NCBI GenBank assembly: GCA_963667805.1
Contig: OY764016.1
Span: 2,077,381-2,141,380 of the forward strand
DNA length: 64,000 bases
From: Candidatus Poribacteria bacterium
Lineage (GTDB): Bacteria; Poribacteria; WGA-4E; WGA-3G
Direction: 5' to 3'
Shown here piece by piece: positions 2,986-19,364 of this stretch; the first letter of the stretch is position 1, and each line of letters starts with the position of its first letter. The notes beneath the pieces were generated by a model, which searched no databases, had not been told where the DNA came from, and was given only the letters and a program-made list of their open reading frames with translations. The position numbers and the translations under genes are program-made.

Positions 2986-3906
2986 TTGAATAGAAAAGCA
3001 ACCATCGGGACACCGCCAACACCGAGCGTTATCAGCGAGGAGCCGCACGGGAAAATTATTGCCCTCAGTCTGCTCCTCGCGTTTCTTTGGGGCGGGAATT
3101 CGCCTTCCATCAAGATCGGCTTGGCAGATTTCCCTCCAATGGCACTGGCGTTCCTCCGTTTCGTGATTGGGCTTGTCGTTATTGGGGGGTGGGCACTCTA
3201 TCGCGGTGTCTCACTTCGTTTGCGCAAGGGTGAACTCCCTCGATTGCTGTTGCTGACAACGATTTTCATCCTCCAAATCATCTGCCTAAACACCGGCACC
3301 CTATTCACGACCGCCTCCCGATCCACCATTTTTATTAACGTCTATCCCTTTTTCACGGCGCTCTTTGCGCATTTCTGGATTCCCGGCGAACGTCTCTCCG
3401 TTCCAAAGACCTTGGGAATCGTTGTCGCTTTCAGTGGTGTCTTCGTAACCGTTGCCCCGAACCTCGGCGAAGGCGAAACGAGCGTCCTCGGTGACCTCGT
3501 CGTGCTTGTGAGTGGATGTTTTTTAGGACTCCGCGTTGTCGTGACGAAACTGCTCATCCAGTCGATCCATCCGTATCGCCTCTTGGCGTGGCTGCTCACC
3601 TTGAGTCTCCCGTGCTATGTCACCATGAGTTTAGTTTTTGAGCGTGGACTGCCGATGCAACTGACACTCAGGAGTAGTGCGGCTTTACTCTATCAAGGCG
3701 GTGTTATCGCGGGTTTCTGTTTTTTAGCGTGGACTGCGGTGCTTGAAAGGTATAGTGCGAGTAAACTCGTTGTGCTTTTTTTCGCAACGCCACTGTCGGG
3801 AGTTGTGTTTAGCTACGTGTTTTTAGGCGACGAGTTGACGCTTAGCTTATTGGTGGGTGCCGTTCTCGTAGCCGCTGGGATTTATCTGGTGAATATGCGG
3901 CGTTGA
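2986..3906 (+). CDS. DMT superfamily EamA-type transporter
   Basis: About 10 hydrophobic helices in two repeats; LWGGN, P..LAFLRF, PGERL, LGDELT motifs. Confidence 0.85.
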   Translation: MNRKATIGTPPTPSVISEEPHGKIIALSLLLAFLWGGNSPSIKIGLADFPPMALAFLRFVIGLVVIGGWALYRGVSLRLRKGELPRLLLLTTIFILQIICLNTGTLFTTASRSTIFINVYPFFTALFAHFWIPGERLSVPKTLGIVVAFSGVFVTVAPNLGEGETSVLGDLVVLVSGCFLGLRVVVTKLLIQSIHPYRLLAWLLTLSLPCYVTMSLVFERGLPMQLTLRSSAALLYQGGVIAGFCFLAWTAVLERYSASKLVVLFFATPLSGVVFSYVFLGDELTLSLLVGAVLVAAGIYLVNMRR

Positions 3907-3934: not shown

Positions 3935-4717
3935 TTACTGCTTTTCAAGCAAGCGTTCTATTTCCAGTCTGTATGCGGAGTCGGGGGCGTCCTTGAGATG
4001 TTGCGCAAAGACGCTCTGTGCGGCGGCTTTATCTCCGAATTCCAAATACACTTTACCAAGTCCATACAAGACTTCGGCAGTGTAAACACGACTGGACGTT
4101 CTCTGTTTGATGGTCTCGATCCGTTGCTTCAATTGTGCAAACGTCTGTCGTGCGGCGGCTTTATCCCCGAGTTGCAAATACACTTTACCAAGTCCAAACA
4201 GGGCTTCCGCGGTGTCATCAACAAAGCCGAGGGAGGTTTTCGCGGGGAAGTCCCCGTCAAGACGATTATGCCTGAGTATCTCAAGGAGTGTTTCAAATTT
4301 TGCCCGGGCTTCTTCATAGCGTTCCTGCTTGAAAAGGATGTAACCCCAGAGATAAAGCGGCTCTGTCTGATTCAAAGGGAGTATCGCCGTTTGGTAACTC
4401 TCTTTAACGGCTGCCTCGGCTTTGAGATAGGGGGAAACATCACCTTCCGTTTCTGCCAACTTCGCATAGCAAAAAGCAATACCGTAATTTAACAGTGTAA
4501 GGAATTCGACATTAATGATCTTTGTATCATCCGGGAAGTGAGGGAACTTTTTCGCAGCCGCCTCGTACTTAGCAATCGCTGCGCGATATTTACCCTCATA
4601 TCGCAGCCACTCGGCATCGTACACATCCTTATATAAATTCGGTTGTCTACATCCGGGCAGCCCCGTCATCAGAATACCCACAAGACTTATGCCAAATATC
4701 TTTATCCGAAGGGACAT
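3935..4717 (-). CDS. TPR-repeat lipoprotein (paralogue of 8095-8985)
   Basis: Start moved to MSLRIKIFG (4717, AAGGAG RBS). Lipobox-like LPG-C. TPR consensus ALFGLGKVYLQLGDKAAARQTF occurs twice; YLWGYILFKQERYEEARAKF. Confidence 0.75.
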   Translation of the reverse strand: MSLRIKIFGISLVGILMTGLPGCRQPNLYKDVYDAEWLRYEGKYRAAIAKYEAAAKKFPHFPDDTKIINVEFLTLLNYGIAFCYAKLAETEGDVSPYLKAEAAVKESYQTAILPLNQTEPLYLWGYILFKQERYEEARAKFETLLEILRHNRLDGDFPAKTSLGFVDDTAEALFGLGKVYLQLGDKAAARQTFAQLKQRIETIKQRTSSRVYTAEVLYGLGKVYLEFGDKAAAQSVFAQHLKDAPDSAYRLEIERLLEKQ

Positions 4718-4800
4718 AGGGATCTCCTTAGCAATGTGGAAAGAGACGCAAAAACGCCTCCTGGAATGTGCAAAATCTGTTAGGATCAACTTGTGTTACG

Positions 4801-5346
4801 CTAATAGAACTTCAGAGATTCGCGGTTCCAGTATTTCCGATTCGGGTAATTCGTTTGAAGAAAGTTCAGCAGGCGATATTCGAGTCGTTCGGGGGTGCCG
4901 CTGGCATCCAAACGGATGATAAAGTACACACCATCGGCGTCTGTTCCGTCATCGCCATCCATCCCGATGACGTAAAGTTGTTCGGGTTCGAGAGGGACGG
5001 CTTTCACTTCCTCTTGATAACCGGGTGGCACTTCCCCGTAGGTCAAACAAGAAACCGGGGATGTCAACAGGCCCCTAACGAAATTATCAGAAGATTTATA
5101 TTTCAACCGCCAAACCGTCCGTTCTTTCTCACCAGAGAAACGTCGTACTTTGTCAACTTCAATACTTCCAACGCTCAACGGTTCTTGAAAATATGGATCT
5201 TGATACATACAGAACGTCGGCTGCATCACTGACGACCCCCAATCAATGGTGACAAACCGAAGGGGCGGCTGGCATCCAAGAAAACCCCAGACGCAACTGA
5301 TGAGAAGACTCACGCCTGCAACGGTAATATCAATTCTATCTTTCAT
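4801..5346 (-). CDS. Putative lipoprotein, MKDRID family (paralogue of 9106-9705)
   Basis: Start MKDRIDIT behind GGAGG (upstream ATG at 5388 is an alternative). Lipobox-like FLG-C. Shares SSVMQPTFC.YQ, L.Y..VP.GY...VK..PLEPEQLYV and FIIRLDASG.P.RLEY with 9106-9705. Confidence 0.65.
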   Translation of the reverse strand: MKDRIDITVAGVSLLISCVWGFLGCQPPLRFVTIDWGSSVMQPTFCMYQDPYFQEPLSVGSIEVDKVRRFSGEKERTVWRLKYKSSDNFVRGLLTSPVSCLTYGEVPPGYQEEVKAVPLEPEQLYVIGMDGDDGTDADGVYFIIRLDASGTPERLEYRLLNFLQTNYPNRKYWNRESLKFY

Positions 5347-5507
5347 TTCATCTACCTCCGGGTATTCAAGGTGGACATCTTGATTCATTGCCGTCTGATG
5401 CTGTTTCCTATTTTATCATTTTTCTCGAAAGTGTATAGCATATATTACAGAAATTTTGGAGCCTAAACCCAACAGACCCCAAGGCACTCCGGCACTTGAC
5501 ACAATCT

Positions 5508-6032
5508 CTAAAACATACCTGCGTACAGTAGCAGCATCGCAAGGACAAAACCTACGTTGCCGGCGATAGAGCCTTTCGTTACGAGTGTTTTGCGGAGCGA
5601 GGCGATTTCTGATTTATAGATTTGGGTATAAGCCTCGATATACTCAGGGGATTTGCCGAGGAGCCGCTCGGGGGGTGGCGTTGCGTTGTGGGGATACATG
5701 TGCACACCGAGCGGCACTGCCAAGCCACCCAGAAGGATAGCAAGTCCGGCAGCACAACCCGCTTGGGAAGGAAAGGGTATAAGCAAAATATCAGACCCTC
5801 CATACGGATCCAACCGTGCGCCTAACAAACATCCTCCGGCGCAACCAAGGAGACATCCCGCAGTGCTCCCCAACCCTCCTAACAGGGACCACATAGTTCC
5901 TGACATACCTGACATATCGGCTTTCGCATCGGCTTTCGCCTGGACTTGCACGGCATCCTGTTGTGCAAGGCTAACAGGCATCGTGCTGAAAATTAGTAGG
6001 GTCGCCATGAGAAGGACAGATATACGGAACAT
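5508..6032 (-). CDS. Glycine-zipper membrane protein, PERLLGKSPEY family (copy 5)
   Basis: Signal peptide ending SLA-QQ; GLGSTAGCLLGCAGGCLLG helix; PPPERLLGKSPEY motif. Confidence 0.7.
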   Translation of the reverse strand: MFRISVLLMATLLIFSTMPVSLAQQDAVQVQAKADAKADMSGMSGTMWSLLGGLGSTAGCLLGCAGGCLLGARLDPYGGSDILLIPFPSQAGCAAGLAILLGGLAVPLGVHMYPHNATPPPERLLGKSPEYIEAYTQIYKSEIASLRKTLVTKGSIAGNVGFVLAMLLLYAGMF

Positions 6033-6085
6033 AGAGTATCTCCTTGAAGTGTTGCGAATTCGTAAAGAGTTCAGTTTCCTAATTG

Positions 6086-6616
6086 CTATCTATTAGCAGT
6101 ATTATCCAGCAGTAGCATCGCACCGATACCTAAGTTAGCGGTGATGGACCCTGCGGTTACCCATCTTTTCCGAAGCGATATTGTTTTGGATCTGTAAGCC
6201 TGAAGGTAGACTTTGACGTATTCAGGGGATTTGCCGAGGAGTCGCTCCAAGGGCGGACTTGGATTATGCGGATATATGAAAATAGCGGTTGGCACTGTCA
6301 AAATACCGCAAAGGATAGCACCTGCAATGGTGCAACTCTCCAGCGGATCGTCAGAGATAAAAGATATACAGTTTGTCTCCGAAATCCCACCGATGAGTAA
6401 TCCGAATAAAAACCCTCCAGTCCCGCCAGCAGCACACCCTATACCACTACTCATCAATCCTGACAGAAACCACAAACTTTCTCTCATATCACGGTTTACA
6501 TCCCTGTGGGCATCGGCTTCTGCTTGTGCTTGCAAGGACTGCTGCTGTGCGAGACTGACAGGTGTCGTGCCGAAAAGCAGTAAGGTTGCCATGAAAAAGG
6601 CGGGTATACGGAACAT
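6086..6616 (-). CDS. Glycine-zipper membrane protein, PERLLGKSPEY family (copy 4)
   Basis: Same architecture; closest to 10315-10818 (both have HRDVNRDMRESLWFLSGL). Confidence 0.7.
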   Translation of the reverse strand: MFRIPAFFMATLLLFGTTPVSLAQQQSLQAQAEADAHRDVNRDMRESLWFLSGLMSSGIGCAAGGTGGFLFGLLIGGISETNCISFISDDPLESCTIAGAILCGILTVPTAIFIYPHNPSPPLERLLGKSPEYVKVYLQAYRSKTISLRKRWVTAGSITANLGIGAMLLLDNTANR

Positions 6617-6679
6617 CAGGTTTCCTCACAGAATGTTGTTGTCTTCGTTCTTATGTCACTTCTCTTATTCTTTCAGTCC

Positions 6680-7141
6680 CTAACGTCCTTTACCCGCTAA
6701 ATACGGCGGTCGCCTTCGTGCCGTCTCCAGATCCTTTAGACGAATGAAGGGCCATGCTTCGAGATCGCCCGCAGCAGCGTCCAACAATTCCTTGCTACTG
6801 TATTCAGGCACACGCCCGAAGGTAACCAGATACCTCAACACCCCCAGGAACTTTTTCAGTGCACTGTGACGTGGCCATTGGTATTCCTGATCGGTTTTAA
6901 GGAACAGAACGCACTTCGCGATTTCCCGTCGTTCATCATCTGATGCTCTATATTCCTCGGTAAGGGTATGTTCATCGAAGTCATCATAAAGGGGCCATGC
7001 CGCAAGCCGCCATATTTCGTAAATAGCAAGATCTTTTGGTGACAGTGAAATCTGATCTTCAAACGCATCATTCGTTATTTGACCAGCTACAAAGTGACGA
7101 AGGAGCTCTGCGAATTCATCCCTTGCTTTTCTATCGACCAT
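6680..7141 (-). CDS. Hypothetical cytoplasmic protein inserted in the cassette
   Basis: 153-aa ORF co-oriented with its neighbours, upstream GAGG; no family recognised. Confidence 0.6.
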   Translation of the reverse strand: MVDRKARDEFAELLRHFVAGQITNDAFEDQISLSPKDLAIYEIWRLAAWPLYDDFDEHTLTEEYRASDDERREIAKCVLFLKTDQEYQWPRHSALKKFLGVLRYLVTFGRVPEYSSKELLDAAAGDLEAWPFIRLKDLETARRRPPYLAGKGR

Positions 7142-7280
7142 TTCTATTTTACCTCATCTTCCTTGCGCAATAAATCTCGGTGTCGGTGAAGGTGCCATCA
7201 TCCATATTTGCGCTGATTTTCGTTAGTTACATTTACTGCTTCCTTATGCTTTTGACACATTGTGTCGGCTTAGGTGCGGT

Positions 7281-7775
7281 TCAGCTACCAAGCCCGAACC
7301 GGGCTATCAAAGTCATAACGCCCAAGTTGCTGGCGATAGACCCTGCGGTTACGAATATTTTGCGGAGGAGTACTGTTCTGGATTTATAGGCATGGGTATA
7401 AGCCTCAATATATTCAGGCGATTTTCCGAGAAGTCGCTCCGGCGGTGGCGTTACATTGTGTGGGTATCTGAAAACAGCAATTGGCACGGCGCAAACACCG
7501 AGAAGCACAGCACCTGCGAGGGCGAAATTTGCTTGGCTGTTACTGGATTCATAACTGGGTCCTCCTAACAAAAATCCTCCGACACAGCCGAGGAAGCATC
7601 CCGCAGCGCTCCCCACTCCCCCTAATAAAAATAACCTGGCTTTTGACCTATCTGACATATCAGCACTCGCATCGGCTTCCGCCTGTGCTTGGACGGTCTG
7701 CTGCTGCGCGAGACTGACAAGCGTCGTGCCGAAAAGCAGTAAGGTTGCCATGAAAAAGGCGAGTATATGGGACAT
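7281..7775 (-). CDS. Glycine-zipper membrane protein, PERLLGKSPEY family (copy 3)
   Basis: Start moved to MSHILAFF (AGAGG RBS); closest to 9786-10286 (ADASADMS, SQ.N..LAG.VLLGVCAVPI). Confidence 0.7.
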   Translation of the reverse strand: MSHILAFFMATLLLFGTTLVSLAQQQTVQAQAEADASADMSDRSKARLFLLGGVGSAAGCFLGCVGGFLLGGPSYESSNSQANFALAGAVLLGVCAVPIAVFRYPHNVTPPPERLLGKSPEYIEAYTHAYKSRTVLLRKIFVTAGSIASNLGVMTLIARFGLGS

Positions 7776-7794
7776 CAGGTTTCCTCTTTTATCT

Positions 7795-7965
7795 CTATTT
7801 TCGAAAGCGTAGCGTCTCAATGAGGGCAGTGCGCGTTAACCCGTGCCCTTTTTTATTATTCAGGATTTCCTCAAGGTTGTCAGCCATGAGAGCTGAAACT
7901 GGAAATTGTTTATCGACGGCGGTTTCCAGTAGCCAATACTCGCCGCGGGTAAATCTGGGTTCCAT
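7795..7965 (-). pseudogene. 5' fragment of an MEPRFTRGEYW-family gene
   Basis: MEPRFTRGEYWLLETAVDKQFPVSALMADNLEEILNNKKGHGLTRTALIETL then reads into the upstream spacer of the next gene and stops; full-length paralogues are 222-246 aa. Confidence 0.8.
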
Positions 7966-7989
7966 ACCGTTGTTCCTTTCGTTTTGGGG

Positions 7990-8070
7990 TGATATTGATT
8001 TTTTCGCTTCAGTCGATTTGACTAAATCCCGCAAGGTAATGGGCGTATCACCAAACTGTCCATAGGACGC
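7990..8070 (-). pseudogene. 3' remnant of a DUF1493-like gene
   Basis: TPITLRDLVKSTEAKK matches TPLYLRDLVKSAEAKK at the end of 12631-13320; DNA 'gatttgactaaatc' is shared. Confidence 0.65.
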
Positions 8071-8094
8071 GCGGGTTTGTGTCGGCAAGGTTTA

Positions 8095-8985
8095 CTACTT
8101 TTCAAGGAAGCGTTGGACTTCCGCCTTATGCAACGAGTTGGGGTAGTGCTCCAGCAGCTGCGTAAATATGTGTCGTGCGGCGACTTCATCTCCGAGTTCC
8201 AGATACGCTTTACCAAGCCCATATAAGAAATCATGTCCAACATGATAAAACGCCTTCTGCCAGTGGGTCTTAATTAACTCCTCAAGTTGGGCTAATACGC
8301 GTCGTGCGGCGACTTCATCACCGAGTTCCAGATACACTTTACCAAGCGCAACCAAAGTTTCATAGTGATCATAAAGGAACATATAAGGCGGCCCGTCGGC
8401 AGGCGGCGGACGCTGCTCAAGCTGCGCATATACACGTTGTGCGGCGACTTCATCACCGAGTTCCAAATACACTTTACCAAGCGCGAATAAGGCATCTACC
8501 TCCAGGAAAGTCTCAAGGAGTGCCTTGAATTTTGCGCCAGCTTCTTCATAGCGGGCTTGCTTGAAAAGGATATAGCCCCAAAGATAGAGCGCATCTGCCT
8601 GATTGGAAGGGTTAATCGCCGTTTCATAGCACTCCGTGGCTGCTGCTTCGGCTTTGCTATAGAGGGAAACATCGCCTTCGACTTCTGCCAACTGGGTATA
8701 GCAAAAAGCGATACTATATTTCAAGTGCATAAGGACTCCGACATGGATGACCTCTCTATCAAAGGCGGATTGAAGGTGCTTTTTAGAAACTTGCTCATAC
8801 TTCGCGAGTGCCGCCTTGTATCTACCACTCTCTCGTAGGTCTTGGGCTTTATATAGATCCGAGTATAGTGCCGAGTGCGGATTCGAGCTATGAAAAGTAG
8901 CCGGAAAAAGACATCCACACCCTAACAGTCCTATCGCCAGAACACCTACAATGCTTATGCCAAATCCCTTTATTACAATGGACAT
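8095..8985 (-). CDS. TPR-repeat lipoprotein (paralogue of 3935-4717)
   Basis: Lipobox-like LLG-C; three copies of LGK(V/A)YLELGDEVAA; ALYLWGYILFKQARYEEA. Confidence 0.78.
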   Translation of the reverse strand: MSIVIKGFGISIVGVLAIGLLGCGCLFPATFHSSNPHSALYSDLYKAQDLRESGRYKAALAKYEQVSKKHLQSAFDREVIHVGVLMHLKYSIAFCYTQLAEVEGDVSLYSKAEAAATECYETAINPSNQADALYLWGYILFKQARYEEAGAKFKALLETFLEVDALFALGKVYLELGDEVAAQRVYAQLEQRPPPADGPPYMFLYDHYETLVALGKVYLELGDEVAARRVLAQLEELIKTHWQKAFYHVGHDFLYGLGKAYLELGDEVAARHIFTQLLEHYPNSLHKAEVQRFLEK

Positions 8986-9105
8986 AATGATCTGTCATTT
9001 GCTTTCTTCTTCGATGAAGATTAAAAAATCAACTCGGTAATTTTCGGTTATGTGTCATTGGCGAGGTTAGGAACCCTCCCCAGCAAGGGGCTACGTAAGT
9101 CTTAA

Positions 9106-9705
9106 CTAATAGAGTTTCAGGTTATATTGCGGATTAAGTGAGAGATAGACGCTTCGGCTATATTCCAACCGGTCAGGGATGCCTGACGCATCCAAACGGA
9201 TGATAAAATGCAGACGTTCTGGTAGCCAAGCATTATCATCAAGTCCCCAAATCTCAGCAACATAAAGTTGTTCGGGTTCGAGAGGTATGGGTTTCACTTT
9301 CTGTTTATAGCCCAATGGCACTTGCCTGTAAGCCAGACAAGAAACAGCTGGGGGAGGCTGCCGCCTCAAAGGTCTATTCATGAAAGTATCAGCGACTTTA
9401 TATTCTATCCACCAAACCATTTCTCCCTCGTCCCTCTGCCAGCCGAGTCCTTGTTGCCAACTGAGTGCTTGTCGCTTGTTATTTTTAGGGGAACTTAGCA
9501 CCTTCCAAACTTTGATACTCTCAATGTCTAACCGTTCTTGAAGGGATCGCCCTTGATACGCGCAGAATGTCGGCTGCATCACTGACGACTCCGAATCGAC
9601 ATGCGCAGCAACCACCACAAACTTCGGCGTGCATCCAACGCAAACCAAGACGCAGGTGATGAGAAGGCTCACGAGTACAATAGTAAGATCGATTCTATCT
9701 TTCAT
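9106..9705 (-). CDS. Putative lipoprotein, MKDRID family
   Basis: Start MKDRIDLT behind GGAG; lipobox-like CVG-C; homologous to 4801-5346. Confidence 0.65.
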   Translation of the reverse strand: MKDRIDLTIVLVSLLITCVLVCVGCTPKFVVVAAHVDSESSVMQPTFCAYQGRSLQERLDIESIKVWKVLSSPKNNKRQALSWQQGLGWQRDEGEMVWWIEYKVADTFMNRPLRRQPPPAVSCLAYRQVPLGYKQKVKPIPLEPEQLYVAEIWGLDDNAWLPERLHFIIRLDASGIPDRLEYSRSVYLSLNPQYNLKLY

Positions 9706-9785
9706 TCGTCTATCTCCGGATATCGCAGAGGGATCCACGATTTACACATTGTGCCGGCTTGGGGTGGTTCAACGGACTGCTCTAT

Positions 9786-10286
9786 TTACCCAACCCCGAT
9801 CCGAGCATACAGCGTCATCATCATAGTCATAATGCTTAAATTGCTGGTGATGGACCCTGCGGTTACGAATATTTTGCGGAGTAAACCTGCCCTTGATTTA
9901 TAGACGTGGGTATAAGCCTCAATATATTCAGGCGATTTGCCGAGGAACCGCTCTGGGGGTGGCATTACGTTGTGTGGATATATCTGCACACCGATCGGCA
10001 CGGCGCAAACACCGAGAAGCACAGACCCTGCGAGAATGCAATTCATTTGGCTGTTCCTGGATTCATTGGAGAAAACTGTTTTTCCTAACCAAGATCCTCC
10101 GACACAACCGAGGAGGCATCCCGCAGTGCTTCCCATTACACCTAACATGAACCACTTATCCTTTGACATATCAGCACTCGCATCGGCTTCTGCTTCTGCT
10201 TGCGGGGACTGCTGCTGTGCGAGGCTGACAGGCATCATGCTGAAAAGTAGTAAGGTTGTCATGAAAAAGACAAATACACGGAACAT
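9786..10286 (-). CDS. Glycine-zipper membrane protein, PERLLGKSPEY family (copy 2)
   Basis: Signal peptide; GVMGSTAGCLLGCVGG; PPPERFLGKSPEY. Confidence 0.7.
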   Translation of the reverse strand: MFRVFVFFMTTLLLFSMMPVSLAQQQSPQAEAEADASADMSKDKWFMLGVMGSTAGCLLGCVGGSWLGKTVFSNESRNSQMNCILAGSVLLGVCAVPIGVQIYPHNVMPPPERFLGKSPEYIEAYTHVYKSRAGLLRKIFVTAGSITSNLSIMTMMMTLYARIGVG

Positions 10287-10314
10287 CAAGGACCTCTTCG
10301 GTCGTGTTGCGAAT

Positions 10315-10818
10315 TTACCAATTGAGCAGTAAGGTCAAAATGCTTAAGTTGGAGGTAATGGATCCTGCGGTTACCCACCTTTTGCGAAGCGATATGGTTT
10401 TCGATCTATAGGCTTGGGTGTAGGTGGCAACATATTCAGGTGTTTTGCCAAGGAGTCGTTCCGGTGGCGGACGTGGCGTATGTGGATACAGATGAACGGA
10501 AATCGGGACCGCCAGGATACCGAAAAGGAGAATACTGCCGAGACCGCAACTCTCCACCGCCGGCACATCGTCGGGTAGAATGTTGAAATCTTCCATGAGC
10601 ATCCCTCCTAAAATCCCGCTGAGACAGCCAGTGACAGCCCCTATACTACTCCCTACCAGTCCCGACAGAAACCACAAACTTTCTCTCATATCGCGATTTA
10701 CGTCCCTGTGGGCATCGACTTCCGCTTGTGCTTGTATGGATTGCTGCTGCGCGAAACTGACAGGCATCATGCTGAAAATCAGTAGTGTTGTCATCAAAAA
10801 AGCAGAGATACGGAACAT
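10315..10818 (-). CDS. Glycine-zipper membrane protein, PERLLGKSPEY family (copy 1)
   Basis: Start moved to MFRISAF (AGAGG RBS); GLVGSSIGAVTGCLSGILGG; PPPERLLGKTPEY. Confidence 0.7.
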   Translation of the reverse strand: MFRISAFLMTTLLIFSMMPVSFAQQQSIQAQAEVDAHRDVNRDMRESLWFLSGLVGSSIGAVTGCLSGILGGMLMEDFNILPDDVPAVESCGLGSILLFGILAVPISVHLYPHTPRPPPERLLGKTPEYVATYTQAYRSKTISLRKRWVTAGSITSNLSILTLLLNW

Positions 10819-10895
10819 GAGACTTCCTCTTTTATCTCGATTCTGGAAAGCGTATAGCATATCGCACAGAAATTTTGGTGAACGCATCTATTTTT

Positions 10896-11564
10896 CTATC
10901 GCCATGCACACCAGAGGTTAAGATACCACTCTGGCTTTCGCAACGGATACCGTTTAGCGTTTTGGACCTCGGTCTGGTCTGGCGAGTGAAATCGGACTCT
11001 ATGTGCACCCTCAAGTTGTTTCCAATACGTTACGTCCCACGGTGCGATATAATCCCACGCAACCGTTGTCAAAGACACATGTCTTGCGTCATAAAAACAC
11101 TTAGATTCAAAATACCTTTCGAGCCATGCTTTATCGGCACAAATCGCTTCCCGGATGACCTGGTCGCTGTGATCTGGGTCATCTGGCAAATGACGACTCG
11201 TGTATATGTATTTTTGCCAGTCGGGTGCGGCGAACGCCTCCCATTGCATTCCTCCTTCCGGTGTCAGTCGATAATACGTTCTTTTTCTCTCACCGACGCG
11301 GGGGATGCGCCGGATGGGTTCACTCAGGGCGCGTTCGATTTGTTGGTGTGTTGAAATCACTCCATCTACCTCATTTTTCACAGAGATCAGTCCCCAGGAG
11401 ATGAGGCGATAGAGAGTCTTAAGGAGTGCGTCCCGTGTTAACCCGTGTCCTTTTTTATTCAAGGTGACCTCAATGTCGCTATCCATGAGATCAGCGACTG
11501 GAAATCGACCTTCAACGGCGGTTTCCAGTAGCCAATACTCGCCGCGGGTAAATCTGGGTTCCAT
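10896..11564 (-). CDS. Hypothetical protein, MEPRFTRGEYW family (possible winged-helix N-terminus)
   Basis: Paralogue of 18624-19364; conserved YxLTxEGGxQWEAFAAPDWQKYI and W..W. Confidence 0.7.
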   Translation of the reverse strand: MEPRFTRGEYWLLETAVEGRFPVADLMDSDIEVTLNKKGHGLTRDALLKTLYRLISWGLISVKNEVDGVISTHQQIERALSEPIRRIPRVGERKRTYYRLTPEGGMQWEAFAAPDWQKYIYTSRHLPDDPDHSDQVIREAICADKAWLERYFESKCFYDARHVSLTTVAWDYIAPWDVTYWKQLEGAHRVRFHSPDQTEVQNAKRYPLRKPEWYLNLWCAWR

Positions 11565-11702
11565 ACTGTTGTCCTTTGTGAAATGACCATCGTAGGATTT
11601 ACTGCTTTTGGAGTAAACGTCCCACCTCAGCTTTGTGTGGTGAATCGGGGAAATGCTTCAGGAGCTGCGCAAATCCCTATCGTGTGATGAGAGATGAAAA
11701 TC

Positions 11703-12524
11703 TTATCTTCGGTTCTTGATTTCGGCCCATGTGGTAGCCAGTCTTCCTTGCGGTGAAACCGGCATCACCTCTAAAAACTGAGCAACCCCGTCTTCGTAGA
11801 GACCTTTGATCTCATAAGGACTGAATCCGGTTTCAAAGACCCCAACCTCGTCAATCAGTGTCTCGTGCGTACTCTCTGGAGATGTTATGAGAAACAAAAC
11901 CATATCTCCATAATAGCCGGGAAAAACGGTCGCCTCGTGTTTTAGCACGGGTTCCCCGTCAATAAAAAGTGTATACGTGCCTGCAAACAACGTGTAAGCA
12001 ATGTGATGCCACTCATCGTTAGAAATGTTCTCATCTTGTGTTGTGAGAACCGCAGATACGTCGGGATCATAGGTAATATGCGTGCCTTTGATATTGCCAG
12101 TGGGGGTAACCCCCAGATCAATTTCACTGACAATATTCTGACGATCTGCTGCGTAGAACCCGCTCATAGCAAACACAAGACCGTTATTTTGTTCCGGTCG
12201 TTTTATCCAAGCGACGATCGAGAATCCTACTGCTGCGAAGTGTGGGAAAAGTCTGGTGCCTGCCCCGAACACATCGTCACCGACTAAGGAAAGACACTTT
12301 CCAGATTTGCCGCCTTCGGTAAGAGAGGCACCGTCAAGAAGGGCACCCGGAAGGTTTTGCGGTCCACTGTCCTCAGTATATAACAAGCCTTCATCAGACA
12401 CCTCGGTAGTTTCAAAATGATAGATGGCGATCACATGATTGAATATAGTATCAGTGTCTAAACCGGCATGCAAAAGATGGGTAAGGCTAAAGATTAATAG
12501 AATCGTCAGAACAAAAACCTTCAT
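11703..12524 (-). CDS. Secreted LamG-like (concanavalin A-like) jelly-roll protein
   Basis: Signal peptide; YHFE, FSIVAWIK, NDEWHHIAYT, LFIDG, LIDEVGVFE; C-terminal VSPQGRLATTWAEIK tail. Confidence 0.82.
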   Translation of the reverse strand: MKVFVLTILLIFSLTHLLHAGLDTDTIFNHVIAIYHFETTEVSDEGLLYTEDSGPQNLPGALLDGASLTEGGKSGKCLSLVGDDVFGAGTRLFPHFAAVGFSIVAWIKRPEQNNGLVFAMSGFYAADRQNIVSEIDLGVTPTGNIKGTHITYDPDVSAVLTTQDENISNDEWHHIAYTLFAGTYTLFIDGEPVLKHEATVFPGYYGDMVLFLITSPESTHETLIDEVGVFETGFSPYEIKGLYEDGVAQFLEVMPVSPQGRLATTWAEIKNRR

Positions 12525-12631
12525 TAAGAAACCTCCATTGGTTTTCGGTATCGTGTTTTAAACAACAAAAACTGGTTTGTGATGAGAATGCTAACGAGGG
12601 CAACAATGGTAATATCGATTCTATCTTTCAT
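12524..12631 (-). pseudogene. N-terminal remnant of an MKDRID-family lipoprotein gene
   Basis: 35-codon ORF MKDRIDITIVALVSILITNQ..., homologous for about 18 aa to 4801-5346 and 9106-9705; TAATG overlaps at both ends. Confidence 0.7.
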
Positions 12632-13320
12632 TATGTCGCCTCCGGTGGGATCCATTTTTTTGCCTCAGCCGATTTGACTAAATCTCGCAAATAAAGTGGC
12701 GTAAGAGAATAAGTATCTTTTAGTTTTTCTTTGTTAAACGCTAAGTAGTAGAGCAAAACATATATGTGAAATGGCTTCCATCCCTCTGGACCGAAATATT
12801 CGTATGGATCAATCTCACTTATATTTTGGACCTCGAATTCTTCACAAAACGCCTCAAGCAATTCATAACCAGCGTCCCCAACTATTCCTAAGTCGTCTGC
12901 TAAGTGCGTGTCTGGTGTGAGTTCTTCTGATCCCCAGATATGCTCTGCTATCAAAACTTTGACGCGAGCGTAAAGTTCGGGATTCATCTCTTGCTGAGGT
13001 TTTTCCTCCGTCAGAGAACTCCCACAATGTGGGCACCTAATAGCCTTTTTTCTTATCGCTTTTGCACAGTTGGGGCATTTCGGTCGCAAGAAAAGCTCGA
13101 AAAAAAACTTTATCACCAGACTTGGACATTTGATAATCTTTTTTGCTATCGCTTTTGCACAGTTGGGATATTTCGGTCGTGAGAAAACCTCGAAAAAAAA
13201 CTTTATCACCAGATAAAGCACACTTATCACCATACAAAGCACATTAAGAATAAAAGTAATACAGCAAAACAGAATCCCCGCAAAGCAAAGATAAAGAAGA
13301 ACAAACTCAACAGATTCCAT
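12631..13320 (-). CDS. Membrane-anchored zinc-ribbon plus DUF1493-like (acyl-carrier-like) protein
   Basis: N-terminal TM helix; CPNC...CPHC ribbon; LTPDTHLADDLGIVGDAGYELLEAFCEEFEV...EYFGPEG...LRDLV resembles DUF1493. Confidence 0.65.
   Translation of the reverse strand: MESVEFVLLYLCFAGILFCCITFILNVLCMVISVLYLVIKFFFEVFSRPKYPNCAKAIAKKIIKCPSLVIKFFFELFLRPKCPNCAKAIRKKAIRCPHCGSSLTEEKPQQEMNPELYARVKVLIAEHIWGSEELTPDTHLADDLGIVGDAGYELLEAFCEEFEVQNISEIDPYEYFGPEGWKPFHIYVLLYYLAFNKEKLKDTYSLTPLYLRDLVKSAEAKKWIPPEAT
13054..13213. repeat. 93-bp-period intragenic tandem duplication
   Basis: tatcgcttttgcacagttggg...ctcgaaaaaaaactttatcaccag at 13054-13120 and 13147-13213. Confidence 0.9.
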
Positions 13321-15895: not shown

Positions 15896-16372
15896 TCAAT
15901 CGAGTCCAGCCACATTTCCAAATCTATCTCTTGTGAAGACAACGCCGTCCCCTTCAACTATACTTAAGGCAGCACCGCCTTTCCCAGCCGCAGAAAAAAT
16001 GGTTACGCCTCCACCCTCTGTGCCAATTGTGAGACTCGCACCAGCATTCCCCTGCTTACCGGTAACGCCTACAATTCCACCCAACTTGCCAATCTGAAGA
16101 CCCGCACCGGCAGGAGCACGTATTCCTCCGAGACCGTAACACGATACCCTTCCACCATTTTCATCCGAAGATATAATAACTCGCGGCTCCCCATTGTCTG
16201 CGATCACGATTATGTCTTCAAGCACAGTTAACTTCCGGACCGCCAGTTCATCAATCGTTTCAGATCCAGATTGTGCTTCGGTATTCTCGTTCATGTTTCC
16301 TAATACAAATCCGGCTAAGGCTATTAACGCACCCAAAGCCATATATTTCAACTTTTCACGTAATCTAAGCAT
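15896..16372 (-). CDS. Hypothetical exported protein with Gly-rich beta-strand repeats
   Basis: AAGGAG RBS; N-terminal hydrophobic segment; repeated GGxVxI/GAxLxI units. Confidence 0.65.
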   Translation of the reverse strand: MLRLREKLKYMALGALIALAGFVLGNMNENTEAQSGSETIDELAVRKLTVLEDIIVIADNGEPRVIISSDENGGRVSCYGLGGIRAPAGAGLQIGKLGGIVGVTGKQGNAGASLTIGTEGGGVTIFSAAGKGGAALSIVEGDGVVFTRDRFGNVAGLD

Positions 16373-18623: not shown

Positions 18624-19364
18624 TTATCGCCAAGCATACCAAGCCTTATCAAAGTAGCCCACATCTGGAAACGCATACGGAGATGGTTCAAAATTCTCCT
18701 GTTCGCTCTTGTCTCGGCACCGACAGCGAACTCTATGTCCTCCATCGAGTTGTTTCCAATACGTCGCCTGCCACGGCGTAACATAATCCCATTCAACTGA
18801 CTCTAAAATCACCTCCATTTGTTCATAGAAACACATAGATTCCATGTAGGCTTCAAGCCAATTTTTATCTCCACAAGCCAGTTCCCACCTTTCATATTCA
18901 CCTTCCTCATCTTCTCGCTGAACACTTCTGGCTATGTATTTTTGCCAGTCAGGTGCGGCGAAGGCTTCCCATTGCGCGCCGCCTTCCTGCGTCAGTCCAT
19001 AGGACGTAATTTTTCTTACATCTACAGGTTCCGTGCGCGGGGGTTTGGATTCATCCGGGACAGTTTCGATGTCTCCGTCAGGTGAAATAAAGACGTGGTG
19101 GGTGTCCCAAGGTACCCGTTGCTCCAAAGCGAGTTCGATTTGTTCCTTCATTGAGATAGACCCTCCCATCTCGCTGTTGGCATAAATTAGCCCCGAAGAG
19201 AGCAATTGATAGAAGGTTTCAACCAGTGATGTGCGTGTTAACCCATGCCCTTTTTTATTTAGGTGTAACTCAAGATCATCATCAGTGAGACCACAGATCT
19301 CCCATTCGTGCTCGACGACCGTCTCAAGTAGCCAATACTCACCGCGTGTAAATCGTGGCTCCAT
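18624..19364 (-). CDS. Hypothetical protein, MEPRFTRGEYW family
   Basis: 246 aa; paralogue of 10896-11564; AAGGA RBS directly after the stop of 19385-23455. Confidence 0.7.
   Translation of the reverse strand: MEPRFTRGEYWLLETVVEHEWEICGLTDDDLELHLNKKGHGLTRTSLVETFYQLLSSGLIYANSEMGGSISMKEQIELALEQRVPWDTHHVFISPDGDIETVPDESKPPRTEPVDVRKITSYGLTQEGGAQWEAFAAPDWQKYIARSVQREDEEGEYERWELACGDKNWLEAYMESMCFYEQMEVILESVEWDYVTPWQATYWKQLDGGHRVRCRCRDKSEQENFEPSPYAFPDVGYFDKAWYAWR

Follow-up and report, generated by a model that had tools for sequence, protein, structure and literature searches.

Candidate orphan immunity lipoproteins against Rhs-borne metallopeptidases in a strain-variable island of a Poribacteria genome

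The C-terminal domain of VgrG2b belongs to the Tpe family of antibacterial metallopeptidases, which act in the periplasm (Wood et al. 2019, PMC6899460). The corresponding immunity gene (PA0261, or Tpi) is invariably the next small open reading frame (ORF), and its product has to be exported and binds the toxin (PMC6899460). Tpi is DsbA dependent, its cysteines are partly conserved, and in Enterobacteriaceae it is an outer membrane lipoprotein; members of the family include VgrG2b/PA0261 from Pseudomonas aeruginosa, Tpe1/Tpi1 from Acinetobacter baylyi, and the SARI_02726 lipoprotein from Salmonella arizonae (PMC6899460). Here we analyze a stretch of 64,000 nucleotides (nt) from a Candidatus Poribacteria genome (assembly GCA_963667805.1, contig OY764016.1, positions 2,077,381 to 2,141,380; referred to below as the window). 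Positions 3935 to 13320 of the window form an island of envelope protein genes with two intact copies of a lipoprotein family that we call L: L1 (9106 to 9705, minus strand, lipobox VGC) and L2 (4801 to 5346, minus strand, lipobox LGC), both recognized in family alignments. By analogy with the Tpe-Tpi pairs, we propose, at slightly better than even odds (a probability of roughly 0.55), that both proteins serve as orphan immunity lipoproteins directed at Tpe-like Rhs metallopeptidases of neighboring sponge bacteria. Poribacteria are uncultured and abundant sponge symbionts, about whose ways of competing within the host next to nothing is known. This kind of toxin-immunity system is already known; what the locus adds is its ecology, together with an uncatalogued lipoprotein family in the immunity position, its obligate and unexplained pairing with a TPR protein (T), and a companion module of a PadR-like protein (MEPRF) and glycine-zipper proteins (GlyZip).

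Alignments of the L family (MKDRID proteins) revealed motifs that are shared throughout the phylum, namely, PTFC, W..EY, SC[IL]TYGxVPPGY, PLxPExLY, and FIIRLDxxGxPxxLEY. The lipobox, as read from the alignments, is conserved across the family (...LVCVGC followed by T in L1 and ...GFLGC followed by Q in L2), and the cysteines of the PTFC and SC[IL]TY motifs are retained in most members. Because the lipobox and these cysteines are kept, L fits the description of Tpi, and its sequence predicts an exported, periplasm-facing protein such as is expected of a Tpi-type immunity protein. Searches of Pfam, NCBIfam, PADLOC, and PDB sequences with L gave no match. An AlphaFold2 (AF2) model of L2 is a nine-strand beta-sandwich (predicted local distance difference test [pLDDT] score of 74); compared with the PDB using Foldseek, it resembled generic Ig/FN3-like sandwiches, none at an E value of <0.001, so no fold was assigned.

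A profile search detected L in 42 of the 176 poribacterial genomes; of the 65 that belong to the genus of the window, 29 have it. Scanning with the L profile detected 5 loci in a genome-contig collection and no locus in a metagenome-contig collection, and a deep profile search gathered 355 relatives. A second tier of relatives consists of lipoproteins of approximately 140 to 150 residues with a YGxVPxGY...PLxP..Y motif; one of these is annotated as belonging to a metagenome-assembled genome (MAG) of Pseudomonadota, and the others are presumed to be nonporibacterial. One distant L-like lipoprotein gene lies inside an array of RHS/YD-shell and Imm42 genes, and at another, a single ORF reads through from an HExxH domain into the lipoprotein. 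At two further distant L-like genes, one at a contig end and one in an unannotated neighborhood, no toxin was seen. A distant L relative scored 16 bits against NF045617 ("putative T6SS immunity periplasmic lipoprotein"), which is below the cutoff of 43 for this model, and the model may not cover PA0261/Tpi. Some L genes of congeners (in genomes G162, G167, G137, G117, G114, G158, G175, and G147; three-digit G numbers denote genomes throughout, and L with three digits denotes a locus) are broken in frame by between one and three TAA codons; in the first four of these genomes, the interrupted L gene directly follows a tandem MEPRF triplet. The interrupted genes may be pseudogenes, or else the interruption is a feature that recurs.

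The sequence-only reading had suggested that neighborhoods next to RHS toxins be compared, and this comparison was decisive: in relatives, L is found after the HExxH tips of Rhs proteins. The non-congener set comprised 46 L genes in 19 loci fetched from other poribacterial families. At 11 of the 19 loci, an HExxH ORF lies on the same strand within 300 nt upstream of L, and 29 of the 46 genes are located no more than 3 kb downstream of such an ORF. Outside the genus, L stands immediately 3' of HExxH domains in members of three poribacterial families; within it, one contig shows this arrangement. L lies just downstream of ORFs with the motif HELxHVWQ in G033, G036, G039, G044, G045, G047, G049, G051, G052, G055, and G057 (another family of the order), as well as in G007; these L homologs have 22 to 37% identity to L of the window, share its motifs, and clearly belong to one family with it. 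The HExxH domain itself is the tip that follows DPxGL on five Rhs proteins of approximately 1,570 to 1,640 residues and on the partial Rhs gene of a G125 contig; in the Rhs proteins of G033, G036, and G052 (1,566 to 1,643 residues), the core end ...NNPLxFIDPxGLR immediately precedes the tip. Two L genes follow three of the four Rhs tips that were fetched (G033 and G036), and the fourth, a c-type tip (G052), is followed by an LRR lipoprotein rather than L. Fragments of the Rhs core end are still present in shorter HExxH ORFs, which are thus orphan cassettes. On the same-genus contig (G125:C49, locus L038), positions 2 to 1582 encode an Rhs core that passes through DPTGLR into a tip with HELTHVWQ; after a gap of 15 nt comes an L gene (1598 to 2179) whose product is 74% identical to L2 of the window.

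The tip is homologous to the VgrG2b effector. Its profile matched PDB 6h56, the VgrG2b effector domain from P. aeruginosa, with an E value of 1.3e-15, and the single tip of G125 matched it with an E value of 2.2e-6, IHELTHVWQ being aligned to IHEMTHVWQ. Faint matches to DUF4157/eCIS_core were seen in 8 of 11 members. The TssC/VipB sheath protein (PF05943) of type VI secretion systems (T6SS) was found in none of 14 Poribacteria genomes, 9 of which bear Rhs, and an Escherichia coli control was positive. Because no sheath gene is present in these 14 genomes, the poribacterial Rhs toxins, which carry predicted Sec signal peptides, are presumably Sec exported and independent of a T6SS. Some poribacterial lineages carry such presumably exported Rhs proteins with VgrG2b-like metallopeptidase tips. 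The Rhs proteins have, besides the signal peptide, YD repeats and an internal LamG domain before the core end (L034, 2727 to 7649; L049, 9957 to 14888; L050, 9359 to 14278; L054, 12300 to 17000). The c-type tip (HEAVHIWQ) recurs at L032 (10872 to 12380), L033 (7523 to 9021), L043 (8683 to 10425), and L054 (3278 to 5559 and 9672 to 11460), each time followed by LRR lipoprotein genes and not by L, which suggests that the LRR lipoproteins act as immunity proteins for this tip. In G007, a HEAT-repeat protein gene precedes a d-type HExxH tip.

Compared with the Tpe-Tpi systems, the poribacterial loci share the effector domain (with the motifs IHExTHVWQ and Y.[IF]EQQ..I..D) and the position of a small gene next to it, which in relatives encodes a periplasm-facing lipoprotein with conserved cysteines. 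They differ in that the toxin is borne by an Rhs protein with a Sec signal rather than by a VgrG spike, and in that L has no detectable similarity to catalogued immunity models. The window differs further, since it holds the immunity side only and since L in this genus is obligately followed by a TPR lipoprotein.

The toxin side is missing not only from the island but also from the entire source genome (5.5 Mb, single contig). Four HExxH domains and one Rhs protein of 1,640 residues were compared with this genome by tblastn and hit only LamG paralogs; the profile of the HExxH tip found none in the window or in the whole genome, and the window contains no rhs gene, core-end (DPxGL) fragment, or tip. 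The sequence-only reading had likewise seen no toxin gene at the locus; one is visible in relatives. HExxH tips occur in 17 of 176 poribacterial genomes and Rhs cores in 20 of 176; among the 65 congeners, G125 alone has either. Two intact L genes are therefore present in a genome without a cognate-type toxin or Rhs. Because toxin and Rhs are absent here and L is toxin adjacent in relatives, the L genes are most likely orphan immunity genes. If so, L, anchored in the envelope, would bind and block metallopeptidase toxins that are delivered by neighbors, and T would serve L as partner, scaffold, or second shield. The module formed by MEPRF and a pair of GlyZip proteins (Ga and Gb) travels with L and T and has no toxin link of its own.

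Orphan toxin-immunity cassettes are known from the Rhs-CT/RhsI loci of enterobacteria, Dickeya, and Salmonella. The relatives of the window (G033, G036, G047, G049, G052, and others) resemble these loci in carrying Rhs genes or core-end fragments followed by tandem cassettes of tip and immunity genes, whereas the window has only immunity-type genes, interleaved with unrelated modules. Orphan immunity arrays directed at T6SS effectors reportedly make up the acquired interbacterial defense (AID) clusters of Bacteroidales and are reported to guard their carriers from contact-dependent toxins of neighbors. The island shares with these clusters the strain-variable content of immunity-type genes without cognate toxins and the setting of a dense, host-associated community. 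It differs from them in having no recombinase, integrase, or conjugative element (insertion sequences [IS] occur in some congeners only), in its fixed site, and in that just one of its gene families is tied to a toxin, which is of the Rhs kind and not a T6SS effector.

The island is a strain-variable accessory region at a fixed site, where recombination among paralogous genes has duplicated the modules and changed their order. In the close clade, the locus always adjoins the EamA-PhyH-RsgA genes, which are 91 to 98% identical to those of the window, and the content of the island differs in every congener: the number and order of DUF1493, L, T, and MEPRF genes, GlyZip pairs, LamG genes, pairs of a 158-residue protein (X158), the orphan gene O, remnants, and IS elements all vary. 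Empty sites, where EamA directly abuts the heme-LRR genes, are found in G132 (the closest relative; EamA, 98% identical) and G151 (95%). Within the genus, whose genes on either side of the island are a few percent apart, alleles diverge by up to 62% (L) and 54% (T). The recurring units are two, [DUF1493]-L-T and MEPRF-Ga-Gb. The L and MEPRF families co-occur in the 65 congeners (both in 20, MEPRF only in 4, L only in 9, and neither in 32; odds ratio of 17.8, P = 1.7e-6). The ORF list of positions 3935 to 13320 includes no integrase, recombinase, or transposase. IS transposase genes were seen inside the island of G154 (L018, 3180 to 4667 and 6290 to 7147) and directly after L on the Rhs contig of G125 (L038, 2381 to 2575); IS elements are a possible vehicle of rearrangement, which would explain contig breaks.

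The sequence-only reading had described the array as decaying. Relative to the orthologs in G140, the ratios of nonsynonymous to synonymous substitution rates (dN/dS) were 0.40 for L2, 0.14 for T2 (94% identical), 0.15 and 0.40 for the GlyZip proteins G1 and G2, 0.28 for the DUF1493 protein, and 0.51 for MEPRF, and those of the flanking genes were 0.05 to 0.09 at similar dS. Because dN/dS lies between 0.14 and 0.51, the intact genes of the island are maintained under purifying selection and are not decaying; only three short remnants are dead. A genus that keeps diverse, selected immunity genes at one hot spot without the weapon would bear the signature of defense against neighbors. The L genes and their putative targets offer testable toxin-antidote pairs and a first functional handle on one of five "hypothetical" families with which these genomes are filled.

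Within the genus, T lies directly downstream of L in every case. For the 21 adjacent L-T pairs, the distances within the two families covary (Mantel r = 0.76, P = 2e-4). T consists of a conserved N-terminal domain of approximately 150 residues and a variable number of TPR repeats of the LGKVYLELGD type. The repeat units of approximately 130 nt number three in T1 (8135 to 8492) and two in T2 (3978 to 4203), with up to about five in orthologs. The N-terminal domain is a copy of the N terminus of a conserved TPR protein of approximately 1,570 to 1,590 residues, which was matched in every poribacterial genome searched and usually occurs once per genome. In the source genome, the gene of this protein (C1:4928787-4935298, outside the window) follows genes for an extracytoplasmic function (ECF) sigma factor and an anti-sigma-like protein, and the product has an N-terminal membrane anchor. 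We considered T as a protein of toxin loci and rejected this assignment, given the match of its N-terminal domain to the large, single-copy TPR protein. Since T is linked to L and diverges together with it, T may act together with L, whether as its partner, as a scaffold, or as an additional shield.

The second recurring unit consists of MEPRF and GlyZip proteins. The MEPRF protein of the island (222 residues; 10896 to 11564, minus strand; identified in the ORF list and characterized with AF2 and Foldseek) is cytoplasmic. In its AF2 model, which is of moderate confidence (pLDDT of 73), the N-terminal ~105 residues, which form a PadR/MarR-like winged helix, superpose on the PadR regulator Rv3488 (5zi8) with TM scores of 0.60 to 0.62 and root mean square deviations of 2.8 to 3.4 over approximately 106 residues (Foldseek E value of approximately 0.03). 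MEPRF has no Pfam match, the PadR model included, so that the likeness to PadR is one of fold only; the C-terminal alpha/beta domain of approximately 115 residues has no recognized fold and is an addition relative to PadR regulators such as Rv3488, with which MEPRF shares the position at the head of a pair of membrane protein genes. The family comprises 250 proteins, none with a Pfam domain, and all of those with a named source are from Poribacteria. It is multicopy and was found in 24 of the 65 congeners and in none of 21 other poribacterial genomes, all of which bear Rhs. A third full-length paralog in the window (18624 to 19364, minus strand; tblastn, 48% identity over 249 residues) lies outside the island, between a WD40-dockerin gene and a heme-LRR gene.

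GlyZip proteins have a signal peptide, hydrophobic segments with glycine zippers, and a conserved PPPERLLGKSPEY...Y..Y loop, which reads YPHxxxPPPERLLGKSPEY...Y..Y in G1. None of the 435 proteins of the family has a Pfam domain. Searching PDB sequences with profiles of L, MEPRF, and GlyZip returned nothing meaningful. The genes occur in heterotypic pairs, an a-type gene (G1 or G4) being followed by a b-type gene (G2 or G5). G1 (10315 to 10818, a-type) aligns with G4 at 62% identity, and its partner G2 (9786 to 10289, b-type) is 67% identical to G3 and 54% identical to G5; BLASTP and alignments also delimit G4 (6086 to 6616, a-type) with its partner G5 (5508 to 6032, b-type) and G3 (7281 to 7775), a lone b-type gene without an a-type partner (all on the minus strand). 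Pairs of a G1-like and a G2/G3-like gene recur in G140, G148, G154, G169, and G152, and G4 orthologs (83 to 88%) in G154 and G126 are each followed by a G5 ortholog (91 to 92%). In G152, the MEPRF-GlyZip-GlyZip module stands alone; tandem MEPRF triplets adjoin L in G162, G167, G137, and G117; and three diverged, solitary GlyZip copies are located amid unrelated genes elsewhere in the source genome. MEPRF-Ga-Gb is probably a regulator with two membrane protein partners.

Several observations weigh against an immunity function of L. The case for it is built from gene neighborhoods and analogy, and no resemblance of L to any catalogued immunity family was detected in either sequence or fold. The L proteins of the window are only 27 to 37% identical to the toxin-adjacent ones of other families; 8 of the 19 non-congener loci have no nearby toxin, and a distant proteobacterial L-like gene stands solitary among housekeeping genes, again with no toxin nearby. 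The sole toxin-L pair from the same genus comes from a fragmented MAG, in which its contig, 2.6 kb in length, is possibly misbinned. Within the genus, moreover, T always accompanies L, and translation of L is often coupled to that of DUF1493; neither T nor DUF1493 is found in toxin loci, and nothing links T, GlyZip, MEPRF, or DUF1493 to toxins; L could have been recruited to another envelope function in this genus. The main rival is built on these facts: L and T (with DUF1493), like MEPRF-Ga-Gb, would belong to a lineage-specific envelope module, structural or stress related, with no present role in toxin defense; either L would descend from an ancestral immunity protein, or a common lipoprotein fold would have been borrowed by the toxin loci. 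Such a module would account for the derivation of T from a conserved protein encoded after an ECF sigma/anti-sigma pair, for the solitary GlyZip and DUF1493 paralogs amid unrelated genes, for the purifying selection, and for a PadR-like regulator beside membrane proteins, which is a common layout. We nevertheless consider it unlikely, because the island is dispensable (it is absent from 36 of the 65 congeners, including the closest relative), because extreme allelic divergence, copy number change, remnants, and pseudogenes at one site typify conflict loci rather than envelope machinery, and because toxin adjacency is a family-wide property that extends to an L protein 74% identical to that of the window.

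The immunity reading can also be extended beyond L. The sequence-only reading likened the whole array to an immunity locus, and this is supported for L, by its position after HExxH toxins in relatives, and not supported for T, GlyZip, MEPRF, and DUF1493. At its widest, the extension would make all five families, and O as well, immunity proteins against different toxins (periplasmic, membrane acting, and cytoplasmic). The families are indeed clustered, multicopy, divergent, and gained and lost together, with MEPRF triplets next to L; LRR lipoproteins and a HEAT protein occupy immunity positions by c- and d-type tips, which makes TPR immunity proteins plausible, and small multipass membrane proteins are typical immunity proteins against pore-forming toxins. 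However, no toxin domain was found beside any T, GlyZip, MEPRF, or DUF1493 gene in approximately 60 loci and island variants, a search that took in Rhs-bearing genomes and congeners with MEPRF but no L was likewise negative, MEPRF is missing from all 21 of the Rhs-bearing non-congeners, the GlyZip matches in Rhs-bearing genomes are, by coordinates only, far from those of Rhs and HExxH, and the N-terminal domain of MEPRF resembles a DNA-binding winged helix. We regard this reading as quite improbable. A narrower extension, which is doubtful, pictures a genus "disarmed but armored," its Rhs weapons having been lost or never possessed. T would present L, as a beta-sandwich inhibitor, at the outer membrane against Sec-exported, T6SS-independent Rhs enzymes from Poribacteria of the same sponge, and the PadR-like/GlyZip module would detect an attack on the envelope and activate this two-part shield, a regulated form of orphan immunity that would be new. 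The least probable reading, to which we give very little credence, is a surface locus that masks receptors or otherwise blocks phage adsorption or injection, like Llp, Cor, and TraT, phages then being the cause of the variability. A hypervariable fixed site with outer membrane lipoproteins is compatible with an arms race with phages, and a phage receptor role had been raised from the sequence; no evidence for one was found. The 5,027 PADLOC models yielded no match other than one weak TPR hit, no prophage or phage genes are among the listed ORFs of the island or its variants, and the one functional link that turned up leads to an antibacterial toxin.

The gene order, strand, and remnants described from the sequence alone for positions 3935 to 13320 were all matched in the ORF list, which shows 14 genes and 3 remnants in an unbroken minus-strand run from 13320 down to 3935. 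The run begins with gene A (12631 to 13320), a remnant of an L gene (12524 to 12631), and gene B (11703 to 12524), followed by MEPRF, G1, G2, L1, and T1 (8095 to 8985; lipobox LLGC; Pfam TPR families and repeat family). It continues with a second remnant ORF (7795 to 8088), G3, O (6680 to 7141), G4, G5, L2, and its partner T2 (3935 to 4717; Pfam TPR). T2 is the end of the island, 29 nt from the convergent EamA transporter gene of the conserved flank (2986 to 3906, plus strand; PF00892). The claim that the unit of MEPRF, GlyZip genes, L, and T occurs twice was upheld by the paralogs, which are 45 to 67% identical (GlyZip proteins, 47 to 67%; L1/L2, 45%; T1/T2, 46%; BLASTP among island proteins, E values of 1e-40 to 1e-68, far above chance), and by direct DNA repeats that are 60 to 83% identical. 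Since these repeats are spaced 4.2 to 4.4 kb apart, the units arose by tandem duplication. Scans of all island proteins with Pfam, NCBIfam, and PADLOC matched only DUF1493, the Zn-ribbon, LamG, and TPR.

The remnants preserve parts of the same genes. That of L (35 codons, MKDRIDITIV..., recognized from repeats and translation) is cut short before the lipobox, and DNA repeats link it, with 84 to 93% identity, to the L1 and L2 genes at their 5' ends; TAATG stop/start overlaps couple it to gene A upstream and to the LamG gene downstream. The ORF at 7795 to 8088 (97 codons; identified by BLASTP and DNA repeats) joins, in one frame, a C-terminal DUF1493 tail and the N-terminal 52 residues of MEPRF (start at 7965 and stop at 7795), with 62% identity to gene A over 24 residues and 71% identity to MEPRF over 52 residues; G126 carries a similar remnant. 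A 55-nt element that is 62 to 82% identical among its copies occurs upstream of L2 (5405 to 5459), G3 (7781 to 7835), and G1 (10824 to 10878), and the copy upstream of L2 includes a promoter-like TATACA-16-TAAAAT with a TG (5437 to 5410). The element may serve the modules as a common promoter or operator. A scan for promoters and terminators gave counts that were not above those of shuffled sequence.

Gene A encodes a membrane-anchored protein with a Zn-ribbon (Zn_Ribbon_1, Pfam) and a C-terminal, acyl carrier protein-like DUF1493 domain (residues 129 to 224; PF07377, 34.6 bits versus a gathering cutoff of 21, E = 3.2e-8). It contains a 93-nt tandem duplication, 86% identical (13030 to 13213); the repeated segment, VIKFFFE(V/L)F.RPK.PNCAKAI.KK, covers the Zn-ribbon's first CxxC half and the stretch before it. 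A DUF1493 gene precedes about half of the L genes of congeners and often overlaps them. In G029, the DUF1493 homologs are small, solitary genes, one of them in a neighborhood that reads, by eye, like rnpA/yidC. A link between DUF1493 and immunity was dropped as unconfirmed, the literature consulted doing no more than listing the name.

Gene B encodes a secreted protein with a LamG domain (Laminin_G_3, PF13385, E = 1.4e-11). It is one of more than 30 paralogs in the genome (tblastn) and a variable passenger of the island; its ortholog in G140 (95.6%) is followed by L and T. The orphan gene O (minus strand) encodes a cytoplasmic protein of 153 residues with no match in Pfam, NCBIfam, or PADLOC, and an ortholog (87%) adjoins EamA in G160 (L030). 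A further family of lipoproteins of 153 residues (MKFLAIIGVFM...ACVPKQ), which is absent from the window, lies between the island and EamA at L016 (14038 to 14499), L019 (9443 to 9904), and L024 (17479 to 18024). X158, for which no family match was found, is encoded in the window at 15896 to 16372 (minus strand) and has an N-terminal transmembrane helix and a glycine-rich, beta-type C-terminal region over its 158 residues. Congeners carry two or three X158 genes in tandem, either within the island or next to it (e.g., L016, L018, L025, L027, and L029).

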